A DNA stretch of 64,000 nt from Escherichia coli (GTDB lineage Bacteria > Pseudomonadota > Gammaproteobacteria > Enterobacterales > Enterobacteriaceae). The notes under the pieces were generated by a model that ran no database searches, was not told the DNA's origin, and saw nothing but the letters and a program-made list of their open reading frames with translations. Location of the stretch: assembly GCF_003334335.1 (NCBI RefSeq), contig NZ_QOWQ01000003.1. One strand, given 5' to 3'. The stretch's first letter is position 1. Every line of letters starts with the position of its first letter. Positions 3,202-28,665 of this stretch are shown piece by piece. The translations under genes were made by a program, and so were the position numbers.

Positions 3202-6200
3202 ATGGCAGATAATCCAGACCCTTCATCGCTCCTGCCGGACGTGTTTTCACCGGCGCCCCGCGACTGGTTTCTTCGCGCCTTTAAACAGCCGACCGCTGTC
3301 CAGCCGCAAACCTGGCATGTGGCGGCGCGAAGCGAACATGCGCTGGTGATTGCACCGACCGGCTCCGGGAAAACGCTGGCAGCATTTCTCTACGCCCTCG
3401 ATCGGCTCTTCCGCGAAGGCGGCGAAGATACCCGCGAGGCGCATAAGCGTAAAACCTCACGCATCCTCTATATTTCACCGATAAAAGCCCTGGGCACCGA
3501 CGTTCAGCGCAACTTGCAGATCCCGTTGAAGGGTATTGCCGATGAACGGCGGCGGCGCGGCGAAACGGAAGTCAATCTTCGCGTAGGGATCCGTACTGGC
3601 GATACGCCTGCACAGGAACGCAGCAAACTCACCCGTAATCCGCCGGATATTCTGATCACCACACCCGAATCACTCTATCTGATGCTGACCTCCCGCGCGC
3701 GCGAAACGCTACGCGGCGTCGAAACGGTAATTATTGATGAAGTCCACGCGGTAGCGGGCAGTAAACGTGGTGCGCATCTGGCGTTAAGTCTGGAGCGGCT
3801 CGATGCGCTGCTCCACACCTCAGCACAGCGAATTGGCCTTTCTGCCACTGTGCGCTCAGCCAGCGATGTGGCAGCATTTCTTGGTGGCGATCGCCCGGTT
3901 ACGGTAGTCAACCCGCCCGCAATGCGCCATCCGCAGATACGAATTGTCGTACCGGTCGCCAATATGGATGATGTCTCATCGGTCGCCAGCGGCACCGGCG
4001 AAGACAGCCATGCCGGCCGGGAAGGCTCCATCTGGCCATATATTGAAACGGGTATCCTTGATGAAGTGTTGCGCCATCGCTCGACCATTGTCTTTACTAA
4101 TTCGCGGGGGCTGGCGGAAAAACTGACGGCACGATTAAATGAGCTTTACGCCGCACGCTTACAGCGTTCCCCGTCTATCGCCGTTGATGCGGCCCATTTC
4201 GAGTCGACCTCCGGCGCAACCTCTAACCGTGTACAAAGTAGCGACGTTTTTATTGCCCGCTCACACCACGGCTCCGTCTCTAAAGAACAACGAGCAATCA
4301 CCGAACAGGCGCTGAAATCGGGTGAATTACGCTGCGTGGTCGCAACCTCCAGTCTTGAACTGGGGATTGATATGGGCGCGGTGGATCTGGTGATTCAGGT
4401 GGCAACGCCGCTTTCTGTTGCCAGTGGGTTACAACGCATTGGTCGCGCCGGACATCAGGTTGGCGGTGTATCTAAAGGGCTGTTTTTCCCCCGTACCCGG
4501 CGTGATTTAGTCGATTCCGCAGTCATTGTAGAGTGTATGTTCGCAGGCAGGCTGGAAAACCTGACACCACCGCATAATCCTCTCGACGTCCTTGCGCAGC
4601 AAACCGTTGCCGCCGCGGCGATGGATGCATTACAGGTAGACGAATGGTACTCCCGCGTACGCCGTGCCGCACCGTGGAAAGATCTGCCAAGACGTGTTTT
4701 TGACGCCACGCTGGATATGCTTTCCGGGCGCTATCCCTCTGGCGATTTTTCTGCTTTTCGCCCCAAACTGGTCTGGAACAGGGAGACCGGGATATTGACC
4801 GCCCGACCTGGCGCTCAATTGTTGGCGGTTACCAGCGGCGGCACCATTCCGGATCGTGGCATGTATAGCGTGTTATTACCCGAAGGTGAAGAAAAGGCCG
4901 GTTCGCGGCGGGTGGGTGAACTGGATGAGGAGATGGTATATGAGTCGCGGGTGAACGACATTATCACTCTCGGCGCTACCTCATGGCGGATCCAACAAAT
5001 CACCCGCGATCAGGTGATTGTGACTCCTGCTCCGGGTCGTTCTGCCCGGCTCCCCTTCTGGCGTGGTGAAGGTAACGGACGTCCGGCTGAATTAGGCGAG
5101 ATGATCGGCGATTTTCTTCATTTGCTGGCGGATGGCGCGTTCTTTTCCGGGACTATTCCCCCGTGGCTGGCAGAAGAAAATACGATCGCCAATATTCAGG
5201 GGTTGATTGAGGAGCAGCGCAACGCGACGGGCATCGTTCCGGGGAGTCGCCATCTGGTCCTCGAACGGTGCCGTGATGAAATTGGTGACTGGCGTATTAT
5301 TTTGCACTCTCCCTATGGAAGACGGGTGCATGAACCCTGGGCGGTGGCGATTGCCGGGCGAATACATGCGCTATGGGGCGCTGACGCGTCGGTGGTCGCC
5401 AGTGATGACGGCATTGTTGCACGTATTCCTGACACCGATGGTAAATTGCCCGATGCCGCGATTTTTTTGTTTGAACCAGAAAAGTTGCTGCAAATTGTCC
5501 GCGAGGCGGTAGGCAGCTCGGCACTTTTCGCCGCCCGTTTTCGCGAATGCGCCGCGCGGGCATTATTAATGCCGGGGCGCACTCCGGGCCATCGCACCCC
5601 GCTTTGGCAACAACGGCTGCGCGCCAGTCAGTTGCTGGAAATCGCTCAGGGATATCCGGATTTTCCGGTCATTCTCGAAACCCTACGCGAATGTCTGCAA
5701 GATGTTTATGATCTTCCCGCACTGGAACGTTTGATGCGTCGCCTGAACGGTGGCGAAATTCAAATATCCGATGTAACGACCACTACGCCCTCGCCTTTCG
5801 CCACAAGTTTATTGTTCGGCTATGTCGCGGAATTTATGTACCAGAGCGACGCCCCGCTGGCAGAGCGCCGGGCATCCGTACTGTCGCTGGACAGCGAGTT
5901 ACTGCGCAATCTACTCGGACAGGTCGATCCGGGGGAATTACTCGACCCGCAGGTCATTCGCCAGGTGGAAGAAGAGTTGCAACGACTGGCTCCTGGCAGA
6001 AGAGCGAAAGGTGAAGAAGGATTGTTCGACCTGCTGCGCGAACTGGGGCCAATGACCGTTGAAGACCTGGCGCAACGGCATACAGGCAGCAGTGAAGAGG
6101 TTGCGTCGTATCTGGAAAATCTTCTTGCAGTAAAACGAATCTTCCCAGCGATGATTAGCGGACAGGAGCGTCTTGCCTGTATGGATGATGCCGCCAGGCT

Positions 6201-7818
6201 GCGTGATGCCCTCGGCGTACGACTACCAGAGTCATTGCCAGAGATTTATTTACATAGAGTCAGTTACCCGCTTCGCGACCTCTTTCTGCGCTATCTCCGG
6301 GCTCATGCTCTGGTCACGGCTGAACAACTGGCTCATGAGTTTAGTCTCGGTATTGCCATTGTCGAAGAGCAGCTTCAGCAACTGCGTGAACAGGGTCTGG
6401 TGATGAATCTGCAACAAGACATCTGGGTGAGCGATGAAGTATTTCGTCGTCTGCGTTTGCGCTCGCTGCAAGCCGCCAGAGAAGCGACGCGTCCCGTTGC
6501 AGCCACGACCTATGCGCGATTGCTGCTGGAACGTCAGGGCGTATTACCCGCCACCGATGGTAGCCCGGCGCTCTTTGCCTCAACATCGCCAGGCGTTTAT
6601 GAGGGCGTAGATGGCGTGATGCGGGTGATCGAACAGCTTGCCGGAGTCGGTTTACCCGCCTCACTCTGGGAAAGCCAGATCCTGCCTGCCCGCGTACGCG
6701 ACTATTCGTCAGAAATGCTCGATGAATTACTGGCAACCGGTGCGGTTATCTGGTCGGGGCAAAAAAAACTGGGTGAAGATGACGGCCTGGTGGCACTGCA
6801 TCTACAGGAATATGCTGCAGAATCGTTCACTCCCGCCGAAGCGGATCAGGCGAATCGTTCGGCGCTGCAACAAGCGATAGTCGCTGTTCTGGCTGACGGA
6901 GGAGCCTGGTTTGCACAACAAATCAGCCAACGGATACGCGACAAAATCGGCGAATCGGTTGATCTCTCTGCCCTGCAAGAGGCGTTATGGGCGCTGGTCT
7001 GGCAAGGCGTCATCACCAGCGACATTTGGGCACCGTTACGCGCCCTCACCCGCAGCAGTTCCAACGCACGCACCTCAACTCGCCGCAGTCACCGGGCTCG
7101 TCGTGGACGTCCTGTCTATGCGCAACCCGTCTCGCCGCGGGTATCTTACAACACACCAAATCTGGCTGGACGCTGGTCGTTATTGCAGGTGGAGCCACTA
7201 AACGATACCGAAAGGATGCTGGCGCTGGCGGAAAATATGCTCGACCGCTACGGCATCATCAGTCGTCAGGCGGTGATAGCCGAAAATATCCCTGGCGGGT
7301 TTCCATCGATGCAAACGCTTTGTCGAAGTATGGAAGACTCCGGGCGAATTATGCGAGGTCGTTTTGTAGAAGGTCTGGGTGGCGCGCAATTCGCTGAACG
7401 TCTGACTATTGACCGATTGCGCGATCTGGCGACACAAGCCACGCAAACGCGCCACTATACACCAGTGGCGCTCTCTGCCAACGATCCGGCTAATGTGTGG
7501 GGAAATCTTCTGCCCTGGCCTGCACATCCGGCAACGCTGGTTCCAACGCGTCGGGCGGGTGCGCTGGTGGTCGTTTCTGGCGGCAAATTGTTACTCTATC
7601 TGGCGCAAGGTGGCAAAAAAATGCTGGTCTGGCAGGAAAAAGAGGAATTACTCGCCCCAGAGGTTTTCCACGCGCTGACTACCGCACTGCGTCGCGAACC
7701 ACGGCTGCGCTTTACGCTAACAGAAGTGAATGATCTACCGGTCCGGCAAACGCCGATGTTTACGCTGCTGCGTGAGGCGGGATTTTCAAGTTCGCCACAA
7801 GGGCTGGATTGGGGATAG
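3202..7818 (+). CDS. lhr: Large ATP-dependent helicase Lhr (DEAD/DEAH box)
   Basis: ORF track 1538 aa; Walker A GSGKT, DEVH box; recognised as Lhr. Confidence 0.92.
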   Translation: MADNPDPSSLLPDVFSPAPRDWFLRAFKQPTAVQPQTWHVAARSEHALVIAPTGSGKTLAAFLYALDRLFREGGEDTREAHKRKTSRILYISPIKALGTDVQRNLQIPLKGIADERRRRGETEVNLRVGIRTGDTPAQERSKLTRNPPDILITTPESLYLMLTSRARETLRGVETVIIDEVHAVAGSKRGAHLALSLERLDALLHTSAQRIGLSATVRSASDVAAFLGGDRPVTVVNPPAMRHPQIRIVVPVANMDDVSSVASGTGEDSHAGREGSIWPYIETGILDEVLRHRSTIVFTNSRGLAEKLTARLNELYAARLQRSPSIAVDAAHFESTSGATSNRVQSSDVFIARSHHGSVSKEQRAITEQALKSGELRCVVATSSLELGIDMGAVDLVIQVATPLSVASGLQRIGRAGHQVGGVSKGLFFPRTRRDLVDSAVIVECMFAGRLENLTPPHNPLDVLAQQTVAAAAMDALQVDEWYSRVRRAAPWKDLPRRVFDATLDMLSGRYPSGDFSAFRPKLVWNRETGILTARPGAQLLAVTSGGTIPDRGMYSVLLPEGEEKAGSRRVGELDEEMVYESRVNDIITLGATSWRIQQITRDQVIVTPAPGRSARLPFWRGEGNGRPAELGEMIGDFLHLLADGAFFSGTIPPWLAEENTIANIQGLIEEQRNATGIVPGSRHLVLERCRDEIGDWRIILHSPYGRRVHEPWAVAIAGRIHALWGADASVVASDDGIVARIPDTDGKLPDAAIFLFEPEKLLQIVREAVGSSALFAARFRECAARALLMPGRTPGHRTPLWQQRLRASQLLEIAQGYPDFPVILETLRECLQDVYDLPALERLMRRLNGGEIQISDVTTTTPSPFATSLLFGYVAEFMYQSDAPLAERRASVLSLDSELLRNLLGQVDPGELLDPQVIRQVEEELQRLAPGRRAKGEEGLFDLLRELGPMTVEDLAQRHTGSSEEVASYLENLLAVKRIFPAMISGQERLACMDDAARLRDALGVRLPESLPEIYLHRVSYPLRDLFLRYLRAHALVTAEQLAHEFSLGIAIVEEQLQQLREQGLVMNLQQDIWVSDEVFRRLRLRSLQAAREATRPVAATTYARLLLERQGVLPATDGSPALFASTSPGVYEGVDGVMRVIEQLAGVGLPASLWESQILPARVRDYSSEMLDELLATGAVIWSGQKKLGEDDGLVALHLQEYAAESFTPAEADQANRSALQQAIVAVLADGGAWFAQQISQRIRDKIGESVDLSALQEALWALVWQGVITSDIWAPLRALTRSSSNARTSTRRSHRARRGRPVYAQPVSPRVSYNTPNLAGRWSLLQVEPLNDTERMLALAENMLDRYGIISRQAVIAENIPGGFPSMQTLCRSMEDSGRIMRGRFVEGLGGAQFAERLTIDRLRDLATQATQTRHYTPVALSANDPANVWGNLLPWPAHPATLVPTRRAGALVVVSGGKLLLYLAQGGKKMLVWQEKEELLAPEVFHALTTALRREPRLRFTLTEVNDLPVRQTPMFTLLREAGFSSSPQGLDWG

Positions 7819-7825
7819 AGAAAGG

Positions 7826-7856
7826 ACTGACGGATGCCCGTTCGCATCCGTCAGTA
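7826..7856. terminator. Bidirectional hairpin between convergent lhr and grxD
   Basis: Inverted repeat ACTGACGGATGC...GCATCCGTCAGT between the two stop codons. Confidence 0.5.
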
Positions 7857-7868
7857 TTGCAGGACGGA

Positions 7869-8216
7869 TTATTCCGCGTCCGGCTCTTCAGACTTGTATT
7901 TAGCGGCAGTTTCTTTGATCAGCTGCTGCAGTTCGCCACGCTGATACATTTCGATCACGATATCACAACCGCCGACCAGCTCGCCGTCAACCCACAGTTG
8001 CGGGAAGGTCGGCCAGTTAGCATATTTCGGCAGTTCCGCACGAATGTCCGGATTCTGCAGAATATCAACATAGGCAAAACGTTCGCCACATGCGGCAAGC
8101 GCCTGGACTGCCTGGGCAGAGAAACCGCAGCTCGGCAGTTTCGGTGAACCTTTCATGTACAGCAGGATCGGGTTTTCAGCAATCTGGCGTTGGATTTTTT
8201 CGATAGTGGTGCTCAT
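7869..8216 (-). CDS. grxD: Monothiol glutaredoxin Grx4
   Basis: ORF track 115 aa; CGFS active-site motif in translation. Confidence 0.92.
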   Translation of the reverse strand: MSTTIEKIQRQIAENPILLYMKGSPKLPSCGFSAQAVQALAACGERFAYVDILQNPDIRAELPKYANWPTFPQLWVDGELVGGCDIVIEMYQRGELQQLIKETAAKYKSEEPDAE

Positions 8217-22934: not shown

Positions 22935-23747
22935 TCAGCACTCAACAAACTGATGCTGTTCATTAAGACGATAGCGGACTCCGGCTCGAATATTGTTTTC
23001 ACCTTCAATGGCGACGGCGAAGCGAACTCTTTCGCCGTCATGATATGCCAGTGCGGCGCTTCCTCCTGGCCCGAGAATAATTGAGTCGACCACGCCCGTG
23101 CTCACTACCGTTGAATTTTCACCGCTGGCAATGATGTGTACATTGTCGCCGCTGTTGGCAATTCTGGCGTTTGCGCCAAAGCTGGCGATTTGCACCAGGT
23201 CACCATTACTGGCGACATGACACCGTTCACCCAATGTACAAACGCGTACTCGCATTCCGGTATTCGCAATCCGACTGCTATCTCCAGCGCTGCTTATCCG
23301 CGAAGAATTACCGGTTACAGCAACCCGTGCGCGTTCACCGGAGCTGCCAATGTGACTGTTAAAGCCGACACTTCCAATCCGCACGCTATAACCCATACTG
23401 GCAATTTGCGCGGCATACCCAGCGGTTGCGATTCTGGCGTTATCCTCACAACAGCCGATGCGAGCATGATCGTCGCTGCGGGCAAACTGACTGCAAAATG
23501 GTCTCTCTCCGGGGTCTGTGGCCAGTTTTTGCATAGAGGAAACTTCCTGATGCGCGAAGTTTTCATCCGCCAGCCATTTTTTCCACGCATACTCAACCAG
23601 ACTCTCCGCCCAGTCCGTATATCCTTCCTCAATCAGTGCATGATGAATATCGGCATAACTACCGCCGCGTGGGAAATGGCGCAGGAACCAGCGATACATC
23701 ACCGCTCCGATACGCCATTCTCGCAGGTCTGCTTGTGTAATGATCAT
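22935..23747 (-). CDS. ydhT: YdhT, last gene of ydhYVWXUT operon; contains about 15 tandem 9-residue repeats
   Basis: ORF track 270 aa; repeats xRIAS-xG-xx across residues ~86-220. Confidence 0.87.
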   Translation of the reverse strand: MIITQADLREWRIGAVMYRWFLRHFPRGGSYADIHHALIEEGYTDWAESLVEYAWKKWLADENFAHQEVSSMQKLATDPGERPFCSQFARSDDHARIGCCEDNARIATAGYAAQIASMGYSVRIGSVGFNSHIGSSGERARVAVTGNSSRISSAGDSSRIANTGMRVRVCTLGERCHVASNGDLVQIASFGANARIANSGDNVHIIASGENSTVVSTGVVDSIILGPGGSAALAYHDGERVRFAVAIEGENNIRAGVRYRLNEQHQFVEC

Positions 23748-23750
23748 TCG

Positions 23751-24536
23751 TTAGTGCCGGTGATAGCCATCGACCATGCTTTTAAAGGTTTCGTGTGGCG
23801 TACGCCCCGTGGTGCAAAGATAAAGATGACCGAAGATAAAAAAGAGGCTTATAAATGCCAGAGCAAAATGTGTCTGCAATAACCAGTATCTTACGCCAGG
23901 AAACACATCTCCCACGGCTTGCGGATAGAGACACAGCAGCCCCGTCAATAGTAACAACGGCAGCAATCCATACATGACACCAACATAGGCGACCTGCTGT
24001 AAGGGATTAAATTTAGACTGGGTTGTTGCCGGGAAAGGATGTTCTTCCCCCTGCATAATGCCAAACAAATAAAATCGCGTTTGTTTTGCCGCTCGTTCCA
24101 GCCACCCCTGACGACGAATGCGATAGTGGTGACCATTATCCCCAACGGCATTGATCAGCACAAAGCCGAGCCAGCATGCCAGTAACAAAAATCCGCAAAC
24201 TTCATGCACCGCAACCAGACTTTTAACCGCAGTTGCGCCCACCATCGCAAAGTGATTTATCAGCCCACTGGCCAGCAACAATACAAAGAGTAACGCATTC
24301 GACCAGTGCCATAATCTGACCGCTTTGCTGTAAAGATAAATCTTCTCACCATGATCGGTGGCTGATTTCTTCACGCCACGAGCACGAAGCAAGGCATGCA
24401 GCCCCAGCACCAACCACATCCCAACCAGCAATACTCCGGCAATGATCAACCACACCGGCCAAAATTCGGGAGTGAACTGTGGCACATAGTTCGCTAACTG
24501 GCTCTGAAACTGTTCAGCATGTTGCGACGGGTTCAT
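23751..24536 (-). CDS. ydhU: PhsC/NrfD-like membrane cytochrome b subunit YdhU
   Basis: ORF track 261 aa; several TM helices with conserved His; 4-bp overlap with ydhX. Confidence 0.87.
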   Translation of the reverse strand: MNPSQHAEQFQSQLANYVPQFTPEFWPVWLIIAGVLLVGMWLVLGLHALLRARGVKKSATDHGEKIYLYSKAVRLWHWSNALLFVLLLASGLINHFAMVGATAVKSLVAVHEVCGFLLLACWLGFVLINAVGDNGHHYRIRRQGWLERAAKQTRFYLFGIMQGEEHPFPATTQSKFNPLQQVAYVGVMYGLLPLLLLTGLLCLYPQAVGDVFPGVRYWLLQTHFALAFISLFFIFGHLYLCTTGRTPHETFKSMVDGYHRH

Positions 24537-25201
24537 ACATTTTCCTTTTTAATCAAATGTTGACCGAACCGGCGATACAGATGCGGTTTCCCGGCACCAG
24601 GTAGCTGATATTGATAGTATTTATTTTGCTGCAACCACGCCTGAATTTCTGGGCTATCTTCGCGACCAAAGATCAATGCGTGTTCCGGGCAGGCGCTGAC
24701 GCAAATGGGCGGAAAGCCTTTTGCCAGTCGGGACTCAGCGCAGAAATCACATTTATCTGCCACTTTAGTGACAGGGTTAAGGTAGCGAACCTGGTACGGA
24801 CAAGCGCCAATGCAATAACTGCAGCCGATGCACTGCGATTTTTCTACCCGCACGATCCCCTGCTCATCACGCCACGACGCCCCCGTCGGGCAAACGTCGA
24901 TGCACGGAGCATCTTCGCAGTGCTGACATGACTGGCGAAAAAAGTGATACTGCGTTTCGTTGTCGTTATCGGTGACTGGAATGTGTGCTATCGATAAACG
25001 GCTTCCCTGAGCGGGGACGTGGTTAGTTTTACGGCATGCGCGGGCGCAAATATTACAGCCATTGCACCGTGACTCGTCATGAATCATGGCATACCGAACT
25101 TCCTTTTCTTGCCTCGTGTTCGCTAACAGAGAAGACGCAGAACCAGTAAAAAAGATTACTGTTCCCATCCCCAGAACAAATTTGCGTCGAGTGAAGGACA
25201 T
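24533..25201 (-). CDS. ydhX: Ferredoxin-like 4Fe-4S protein YdhX with twin-arginine signal
   Basis: Start chosen at MSFTRRKFVLG (Tat motif) with upstream SD; four CxxCxxCxxxCP-type cysteine clusters; ORF track gives a longer upstream extension. Confidence 0.85.
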   Translation of the reverse strand: MSFTRRKFVLGMGTVIFFTGSASSLLANTRQEKEVRYAMIHDESRCNGCNICARACRKTNHVPAQGSRLSIAHIPVTDNDNETQYHFFRQSCQHCEDAPCIDVCPTGASWRDEQGIVRVEKSQCIGCSYCIGACPYQVRYLNPVTKVADKCDFCAESRLAKGFPPICVSACPEHALIFGREDSPEIQAWLQQNKYYQYQLPGAGKPHLYRRFGQHLIKKENV

Positions 25202-25264
25202 CTGATTATCCCCTAATGCAGTGGCTGCAACTGTCCACCCTATCCATGACATCTCCCTGAAATT

Positions 25265-25912
25265 TCAGGGGTTCTGAAACTGCTCTACCTCGAACCATTC
25301 GCATAAGCCATAAGCCTTGCCATAGGTCATAAATCGCTCGCTAAACAAGTACAACACCGCCGTCGATGACTCCACCTGCCGTATATCGGCATATTCAGGT
25401 GCAACATCCATCGCGGCGATCGCGGCTTCAATCTGCGCTTCCTGGAAGTAATATGGCGCTTGCATCAGCATGGCGACTTTGTAAGGACGAGGATACGTCT
25501 GGCACTCAAAACGAACGGCGTGTGCAATGGCGCGACAAATGTCCTGCTCCACAACTTGCAAAGACATCGCCGCGTAGTTTTCACTCATGGCCTGCGTTGA
25601 GTAATAGTAATCATCCTTGCTTCCCGTCAAACAAGCGATATCCGCGTAGTCTCCGTTCTGCTTAATGCTTTCCAGCAAAACTGACAGTTCCTCTTCTGCA
25701 ACCAAATAGGGTGGCGAGAGAAACACGGCGCGCGCCACCAGCTGCCCAGCCGCAGAATGCTGGCGAATGAACTCAGCCAGGATTTCAGCAGGTTCTGGTT
25801 CGGTTACCGTATCAACGGGGTGACGCATCCCCTGCAACCATTGCCGCTTCGCCTCGTCAACTTCGCTGACTTTCGCTAACGGCAATTCATCCTGATGGTT
25901 CATCTTACCCAT
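25265..25912 (-). CDS. ydhW: YdhW, unknown function
   Basis: ORF track 215 aa; operon position between ydhV and ydhX. Confidence 0.85.
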   Translation of the reverse strand: MGKMNHQDELPLAKVSEVDEAKRQWLQGMRHPVDTVTEPEPAEILAEFIRQHSAAGQLVARAVFLSPPYLVAEEELSVLLESIKQNGDYADIACLTGSKDDYYYSTQAMSENYAAMSLQVVEQDICRAIAHAVRFECQTYPRPYKVAMLMQAPYYFQEAQIEAAIAAMDVAPEYADIRQVESSTAVLYLFSERFMTYGKAYGLCEWFEVEQFQNP

Positions 25913-25915
25913 TCC

Positions 25916-28665
<2,750 letters not shown>

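Follow-up and report, generated by a model that had tools for sequence, protein, structure and literature searches.

The window analysed here, a stretch of 64,000 nucleotides from the Escherichia coli chromosome, holds ydhS, then ydhT-ydhU(phsC)-ydhX-ydhW-ydhV-ydhY on the minus strand, and then fumD, ynhH, pykF and lpp. Read in the direction of transcription, the ydh genes are ydhY (28039..28665), coding for a WorS-type ferredoxin but a pseudogene in the window (internal stop); ydhV (25916..28018), coding for a pyranopterin enzyme of the AOR/WOR family of 700 aa without signal peptide; ydhW (25265..25903), coding for a predicted tandem winged-helix protein co-conserved with YdhY-YdhV in most loci; ydhX (24533..25201), coding for an NrfC/PsrB-type four-cluster ferredoxin of 222 aa; ydhU (23751..24536, annotated phsC), coding for a membrane cytochrome b of the PhsC/Ni_hydr_CYTB type that is the likely membrane dock of YdhX; and ydhT (22935..23747), the last gene of the operon, without signal and seen only in Enterobacterales loci. 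A 5.3-kb query from the locus matched all but one of 5426 complete E. coli genomes, and in 5394 the match spanned 80% or more of its length. Elsewhere in the window, two tandem tRNA-Val(GAC) genes of ordinary appearance lie between ydhQ and ydhR (20623-20780).

The minus strand of 25121-25201 encodes exactly MSFTRRKFVLGMGTVIFFTGSASSLLA, the first 27 codons of ydhX, and from its sequence this 81-bp stretch is predicted to be a genuine, ordinary Tat signal. Residues 4-10 read T-R-R-K-F-V-L and are followed by an h-region of 20 uncharged residues with a mean Kyte-Doolittle value of 1.1; the putative cleavage end is L-L-A followed by N, with Ala at -1 and Leu at -3. The motif is kept as [ST]RR[KQE]F in orthologues. 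In a scan of every ATG, GTG or TTG with at least 60 codons downstream in the six frames (1602 candidate starts), ydhX was the sole ORF with [ST]RRxF[LIVMA] in the first 35 residues and at least 13 uncharged residues after it. Moreover, positions 2-215 of TIGR03149, the NrfC equivalog profile, align with YdhX residues 3-210, signal included, and the alignment with the solved PsrB chain 2vpw_B (E 2e-34) begins only at residue 36, so that residues 1-35 appear to be a removable N-terminal extension. The mature part is of the kind that must fold and bind its cofactors before export, with a Fer4_11 domain, multiple 4Fe-4S motifs and NrfC/PsrB homology.

A chance motif or a wrongly called ydhX start is very improbable. 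All that speaks for it is an in-frame ATG upstream, at 25252, and the longer ydhX extension that this codon would give is not conserved in other genera. The annotated ATG, which is also the RefSeq start in near-identical strains, is favoured because it is preceded, 7 nt on its 5' side, by a Shine-Dalgarno sequence, AGGGGA (25209..25214, minus strand); conservation in orthologues, NrfC homology and uniqueness in the window likewise argue against the chance reading. The TAT_signal model was absent from the top 25 Pfam/NCBIfam hits, where only ferredoxin families appeared, and support for the YdhX signal therefore comes from the motif, the NrfC homology and published SignalP 6.0 calls. Indeed, YdhX with the exact same peptide is among the predicted E. 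coli Tat substrates (PMC7549933) and is also a listed substrate in PMC3027627, and the SignalP 6.0 calls are Tat/SPI for YdhX and Tat/SPII for YdhY, the two proteins chosen as examples of these signal types in a 2026 toolkit paper (PMC13101318). Thus, the canonical motif and hydrophobic core that the preliminary description had reported for YdhX are borne out by uniqueness among the 1602 starts, by homology to the NrfC signal and by the published Tat/SPI call. Since published tables and SignalP 6.0 output carry it, this observation is correct and not new: the Tat signal of YdhX and the signal-less YdhV are both already catalogued knowledge.

The best family and structure matches of YdhX are Tat-exported four-cluster ferredoxins of the NrfC/PsrB/PhsB type (TIGR03149, E 2e-74; 2vpw_B), which transfer electrons in periplasmic respiratory enzymes and with which it shares a Tat-type signal in the same position and a gene followed by an overlapping gene for a membrane quinone-interacting subunit. 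It is not an NrfC equivalog, because its score of 249.8 bits lies below the TIGR03149 cut-off of 377.6. In contrast to the NrfC/PsrB systems, the membrane partner of YdhX is a PhsC-type cytochrome b rather than NrfD/PsrC, and the catalytic partner is of the AOR family rather than of the DMSO-reductase family or NrfA. The ydhX stop and the ydhU start share 4 nt (24533-24536), which suggests that translation of the ferredoxin is coupled to that of its cytochrome b partner.

YdhV, described beforehand as lacking a signal peptide, has indeed none that could be recognised, as befits a hitchhiker passenger. In alignments with solved aldehyde:ferredoxin oxidoreductases (AORs), residue 4 of YdhV falls on their residue 3, positions 4-703 of the NCBIfam equivalog NF007354 (1372 bits) align with residues 1-700, and in the best full-length relatives (38-57% identity, among 150 listed from a search of 1.84 billion representatives) the match begins at target residue 1-9. 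The fold thus starts at residue 3-4, as in the solved AORs, the profile and the listed homologues. The in-frame upstream extension of the ydhV ORF (MRKRLPNRGVKNYRVERYYCVNLAKEKI) contains no hydrophobic stretch, and a cryptic signal, which would have spoken against the earlier proposal, is ruled out to the extent that sequence allows. YdhV has the AFOR_N plus AFOR_C build of a WorL protein, as seen from NF007354 and PDB AOR hits for YdhV and from both domains on homologues. Recombinant YdhV produced alone comes cofactor-loaded (Reschke 2019, summarised in PMC13328260), which shows that it folds without export.

The third protein of interest, YdhY, is interrupted in this strain. A single C-to-A change on the coding strand at position 28601 turns the Ser22 codon TCA into TAA (28600..28602, minus strand), inside the signal, so that the N-terminus reads LTRLEFLRI* in the window; the disruption reported in the preliminary description is therefore real. 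Codons 14-41 (28543..28626, minus strand; TRLEFLR(I)SGKGLAGLTIAPALLSLLGC) would otherwise encode a Tat-derived signal without the second arginine and with a lipobox-like L-L-G-C end. Thus, unlike Class V tungsten oxidoreductases in general, the window has a pseudogene in the place of WorS, stopped at codon 22, and even the intact E. coli allele has R-L and not R-R. An exact-match query of 61 nt found the S22* allele in 3 of 5397 complete E. coli genomes, all three annotated "internal stop". These genomes are identical to one another over about 6 kb but for one gap in one comparison, and they differ from the window by 43 mismatches over about 6 kb. The nearest relative examined, strain 720632, has the intact TCA codon and differs from the window by 6 mismatches in 8301 positions. 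Since the window is near this intact-codon strain and far from the three S22* genomes, the allele stands on two haplotypes, through either independent origin or a short recombination tract. The stop at codon 22 of ydhY probably leaves this strain without a working Ydh system; speculatively, translation resuming at TTG codon 39 would yield a YdhY that lacks the signal. Strains with the S22* allele are therefore unsuitable for Ydh localisation work.

To see which ferredoxin would carry YdhV, we compared 78 genomic loci with YdhV homologues of 41-98% identity, in which ORFs were labelled by BLASTP with the six Ydh proteins of E. coli as references; the loci were searched with a 6-sequence YdhV alignment, a 16-sequence alignment being too divergent. 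Nearly all of the 78 loci have a YdhY-like ferredoxin beside the YdhV homologue, and a YdhW homologue is usually close by; this YdhY-YdhV module spans Firmicutes, Coriobacteriia, Spirochaetota, Desulfobacterota, Chloroflexi and Shewanella. The YdhY homologue is directly upstream of ydhV on the same strand in most phyla and divergent in Coriobacteriia. The downstream X-U-T block was found in only 9 of the 78 loci, all of them from Enterobacterales (Escherichia, Citrobacter, Budvicia, Proteus, Brenneria), and three further operons reached through YdhY homologues (Telmatospirillum and two metagenome contigs) have the order Y-V-W-X-U without T. The downstream ydhX-ydhU pair was thus seen only in proteobacterial operons (9 of 78 loci plus the 3 extra), and gene linkage to YdhV is general for YdhY and restricted for YdhX to the proteobacterial Y-V-W-X-U lineage.

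The arginine pair follows the same division. A canonical RR stands on the YdhY homologue in every locus that could be evaluated and has no ydhX downstream, 65 of 65 (for example TRRQFLK, SRREFLK or TRRDVLA); a regular-expression tally had given 64, and hand inspection amended five motifs and added one locus (L055). In the X-containing operons, 11 of 11 evaluable, YdhY has TRLEFLR, TRQEFLR or TRKEFLR, and it is YdhX that has [ST]RR[KQE]F, a pattern that carries little statistical weight because it probably reflects one evolutionary event. Given that RR stands on YdhY wherever ydhX is absent, YdhY would be the ancestral and most direct carrier of YdhV and YdhX a later addition, as judged from these sequences. 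The published classification agrees: a 2026 scheme of tungsten oxidoreductases has YdhV as WorL and YdhY as WorS, the Tat-signal-bearing partner, defines Class V by WorS bearing a Tat signal, a transmembrane segment or both, and deduces that the orientation is periplasmic, and it mentions neither the broken arginine pair of the enterobacterial WorS nor YdhX (PMC13328260). In the lineage in which the second arginine of YdhY is gone, the role left for YdhX is therefore no more than that of an added or substitute carrier. The earlier suggestion that YdhV, unless cytoplasmic, is carried by YdhX as a hitchhiker is thus kept in part: YdhX does have the only intact RR in the E. coli operon, but elsewhere the conserved RR-bearing partner of YdhV is YdhY.

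Solved structures were also considered as a means of picking the AOR small subunit, and were rejected for this use, as YdhX and YdhY both match these and many other ferredoxins similarly: YdhX is ahead for 9mqx_E (E 9e-18 vs 2e-13), and YdhY for 8c0z_C (7e-15 vs 9e-12) and 6x6u_B (3e-12 vs 4e-7). Because such matches do not separate the two ferredoxins, the subunit contacts proposed below are derived from gene order.

Several other arrangements were noted among the loci. In 15 Coriobacteriia loci, the divergent YdhY has RR and a long hydrophobic segment, VLAMAGCGVAGLVVGGVLASWGV, which from its sequence looks like an uncleaved anchor, and a YdhX-like ferredoxin without signal (start MARYGMLI) is encoded a few kb off. 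Three loci from Desulfobacterota and Nitrospirota MAGs (L047, L049 and L055) have the order Y-U-V-W, with a YdhU-like cytochrome b between the RR-bearing YdhY and YdhV; in these loci, which have no YdhX in this order, YdhY may dock directly on the cytochrome b. Finally, Mo-cofactor genes (MoaA-like radical SAM, MobB, FdhD, MoeA), at 6840-7958 of locus L081 and at 4915-7951 and 13190-14446 of locus L082, flank the Y-V-W-X-U operons there, in parallel with the FdhD and MoeA genes reported beside the Cetobacterium somerae operon.

For the remaining module protein, YdhW, membership of the TorD/DmsD family of signal-binding chaperones (REMP) was considered and rejected, there being no Pfam hit and no TorD-like AF2 model. 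The confident AF2 model matches tandem winged-helix proteins (ESCRT-II VPS22, ScpB, MarR-like), with two predicted tandem winged-helix-like domains and a conserved YPRP motif. YdhW had no match in the Pfam version searched, and precomputed annotations show the newer PF27264 (YdhW_C); in most phyla it occurs together with YdhY-YdhV. In seven loci of the Y-V-W-X-U lineage, YdhW has an N-terminal extension with twin-arginine-like motifs (NRRRLFG, SRRRWLL, GRRRFLR, SKRRLLL), with no hydrophobic region after them and with no counterpart in other phyla; E. coli and Citrobacter have a degenerate form, KRQWLQ, which in the window lies at 25829-25855 (codons 17-25, EAKRQWLQG). Speculatively, from its sequence, this [RK]R[RQ]-hydrophobic motif might share in Tat cargo recognition.

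What the loss of the second arginine means depends on the state of the rest of the YdhY signal. YdhY is not a twin-arginine protein in the strict sense, its motif being T-R-L-E-F-L-R in E. coli, with L, Q or K at the second position across the lineage. Among 19 non-redundant YdhY sequences from the lineage without RR, mean pairwise identity is 0.70 over the part that runs from the motif to the lipobox Cys, compared with 0.71 for the ferredoxin domain. The first Arg, the Phe, the Pro and the lipobox G-C are invariant (the predicted L-L-G-C has its G-C in 19 of 19), and the second-Arg column alone is free (L in 9, Q in 8, K in 2). Many RR-bearing YdhY homologues likewise end in a lipobox-like [LIFM]GC. 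There is neither a decayed h-region nor a relaxed N-terminus, and a dead remnant was rejected for YdhY, as the signal is as conserved as the ferredoxin domain. The preliminary description had called TRLEFLR a degenerate Tat-like motif; this holds for the lost second arginine and not for the remainder, which is conserved like the mature domain and for which SignalP 6.0 returns Tat/SPII (PMC13101318). Around YdhY codons 22-25 (SGKG; 28591-28602 in the window), right behind the Tat motif, we further observed that F-L-K/R-x-S-G-K-G-L-A-G is kept in homologues across distant phyla. Signal peptides are usually far less conserved, which suggests that the YdhY signal has a binding partner dedicated to it.

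A first alternative is that, with RR lost, YdhV-YdhY stays in the cytoplasm as NarG does, that only YdhX is exported and that the haems of YdhU pass electrons across the membrane. We regard this as rather unlikely. None of the 11 X-containing operons retains the second Arg of YdhY, and its position is free to vary (L9, Q8, K2), which would suit such a change, and YdhY resembles a NarG-type remnant in having a recognisable Tat motif with a broken arginine pair. Remnants of the NarG type are not known to have a functional h-region, and YdhY differs from them in that both its h-region and its lipobox are fully conserved. Enzymes that stay unexported yet carry remnant Tat signals are documented (Ize 2009, cited in PMC10924467), and the cofactor-loaded state of YdhV expressed alone (PMC13328260) also agrees with a cytoplasmic enzyme. 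However, a remnant should decay, yet the h-region, Pro and G-C of YdhY are invariant and the signal is no less conserved than the ferredoxin domain; SignalP 6.0 still calls Tat/SPII, and a lone periplasmic YdhX without a periplasmic catalytic partner would have no obvious role.

The conserved signal could also mean that YdhY is still Tat-competent on its own with R-L, comparable to TtrB with K-R, so that YdhV would ride on YdhY only and meet a separately exported YdhX in the periplasm. In its favour, YdhV universally has YdhY as its neighbour, everywhere else YdhY is the subunit that bears the signal, purifying selection on this signal is strong, and the published Tat/SPII call points the same way. 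Against this, R-L, R-Q and R-K all alter the second Arg, and RR is missing from YdhY in just those operons that have an RR-bearing YdhX. TtrB has a Tat signal with K-R, and the natural exceptions known to us keep the second Arg in this manner (K-R); we know of no working natural Tat signal with a hydrophobic residue in its place. Export of YdhY by itself is thus, in our view, unlikely.

The reading that we hold to be somewhat more probable than its competitors taken together joins the two ferredoxins: YdhX would be exported by Tat and dock on YdhU, and YdhV would be the passenger, with YdhY as its direct carrier and YdhX co-exported or helping. This model builds on sequence features, homology, gene co-occurrence and conservation, and the export route, subunit contacts and periplasmic location in it are predicted. 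YdhX would acquire its Fe-S clusters in the cytoplasm, cross the membrane folded and dock on YdhU. YdhV, the Mo/W-pyranopterin catalytic subunit, would bind YdhY as WorL binds WorS and could reach the periplasm only as a hitchhiker. In the proteobacterial Y-V-W-X-U(-T) lineage, YdhY would have kept its h-region and lipobox and lost the second Arg, leaving YdhX with the sole canonical RR. Since no other pair is intact in the E. coli operon, co-export with or assistance by YdhX is plausible, and the most likely assembly in E. coli would be a YdhV-YdhY unit exported together with YdhX or helped by it. A periplasmic V-Y-X chain might then feed YdhU and, through it, the quinone pool. A further, doubtful possibility is that a YdhV-YdhY-YdhX cargo is recognised via the RR of YdhX and that the YdhY signal, though without RR, is nonetheless inserted and matured into a lipoprotein anchor. 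If true, one member of a cargo would here complement, in trans, the defective Tat signal of another. Points against joint export of YdhV, YdhY and YdhX are that no precedent is known to us for a Tat passenger retaining an uncleaved or lipidated signal of its own, that no natural Tat signal is known to work with a hydrophobic residue for the second Arg, and that YdhV folds without export. A periplasmic Ydh complex has been predicted before (PMC4257093), and Tat export by hitchhiking, like the Tat lipoprotein signal, is an established phenomenon (PMC10924467). The searchable literature yielded only predictions of Tat dependence and no localisation experiments on any Ydh protein.

The proposed assembly is akin to that of the hydrogenases, where HyaA/HybO go with their large subunits, and of PaoA/YagT, which carries PaoB and PaoC, in that a signal-less cofactor enzyme stands beside a signal-bearing Fe-S subunit (PMC10924467; the YagT signal is listed in PMC7549933). 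Unlike in these systems, there are two ferredoxins with Tat-type N-termini in Ydh, the one beside YdhV has lost its RR, and co-export is here a prediction. The operon also fits Class V (clade 41) WorL-WorS, with YdhV as WorL, YdhY as WorS and YdhW-like genes that travel with the class (PMC13328260).

To conclude, what our analysis adds is comparative: YdhY, and not YdhX, would be the conserved carrier of this enzyme class. We know of no member of the class that has been purified from its native host or that has an assigned activity or physiological role. The loss of RR from YdhY exactly where an RR-bearing YdhX occurs, with the rest of the signal still selected, is a small and testable addition, and this pattern gives a concrete design for localisation experiments.
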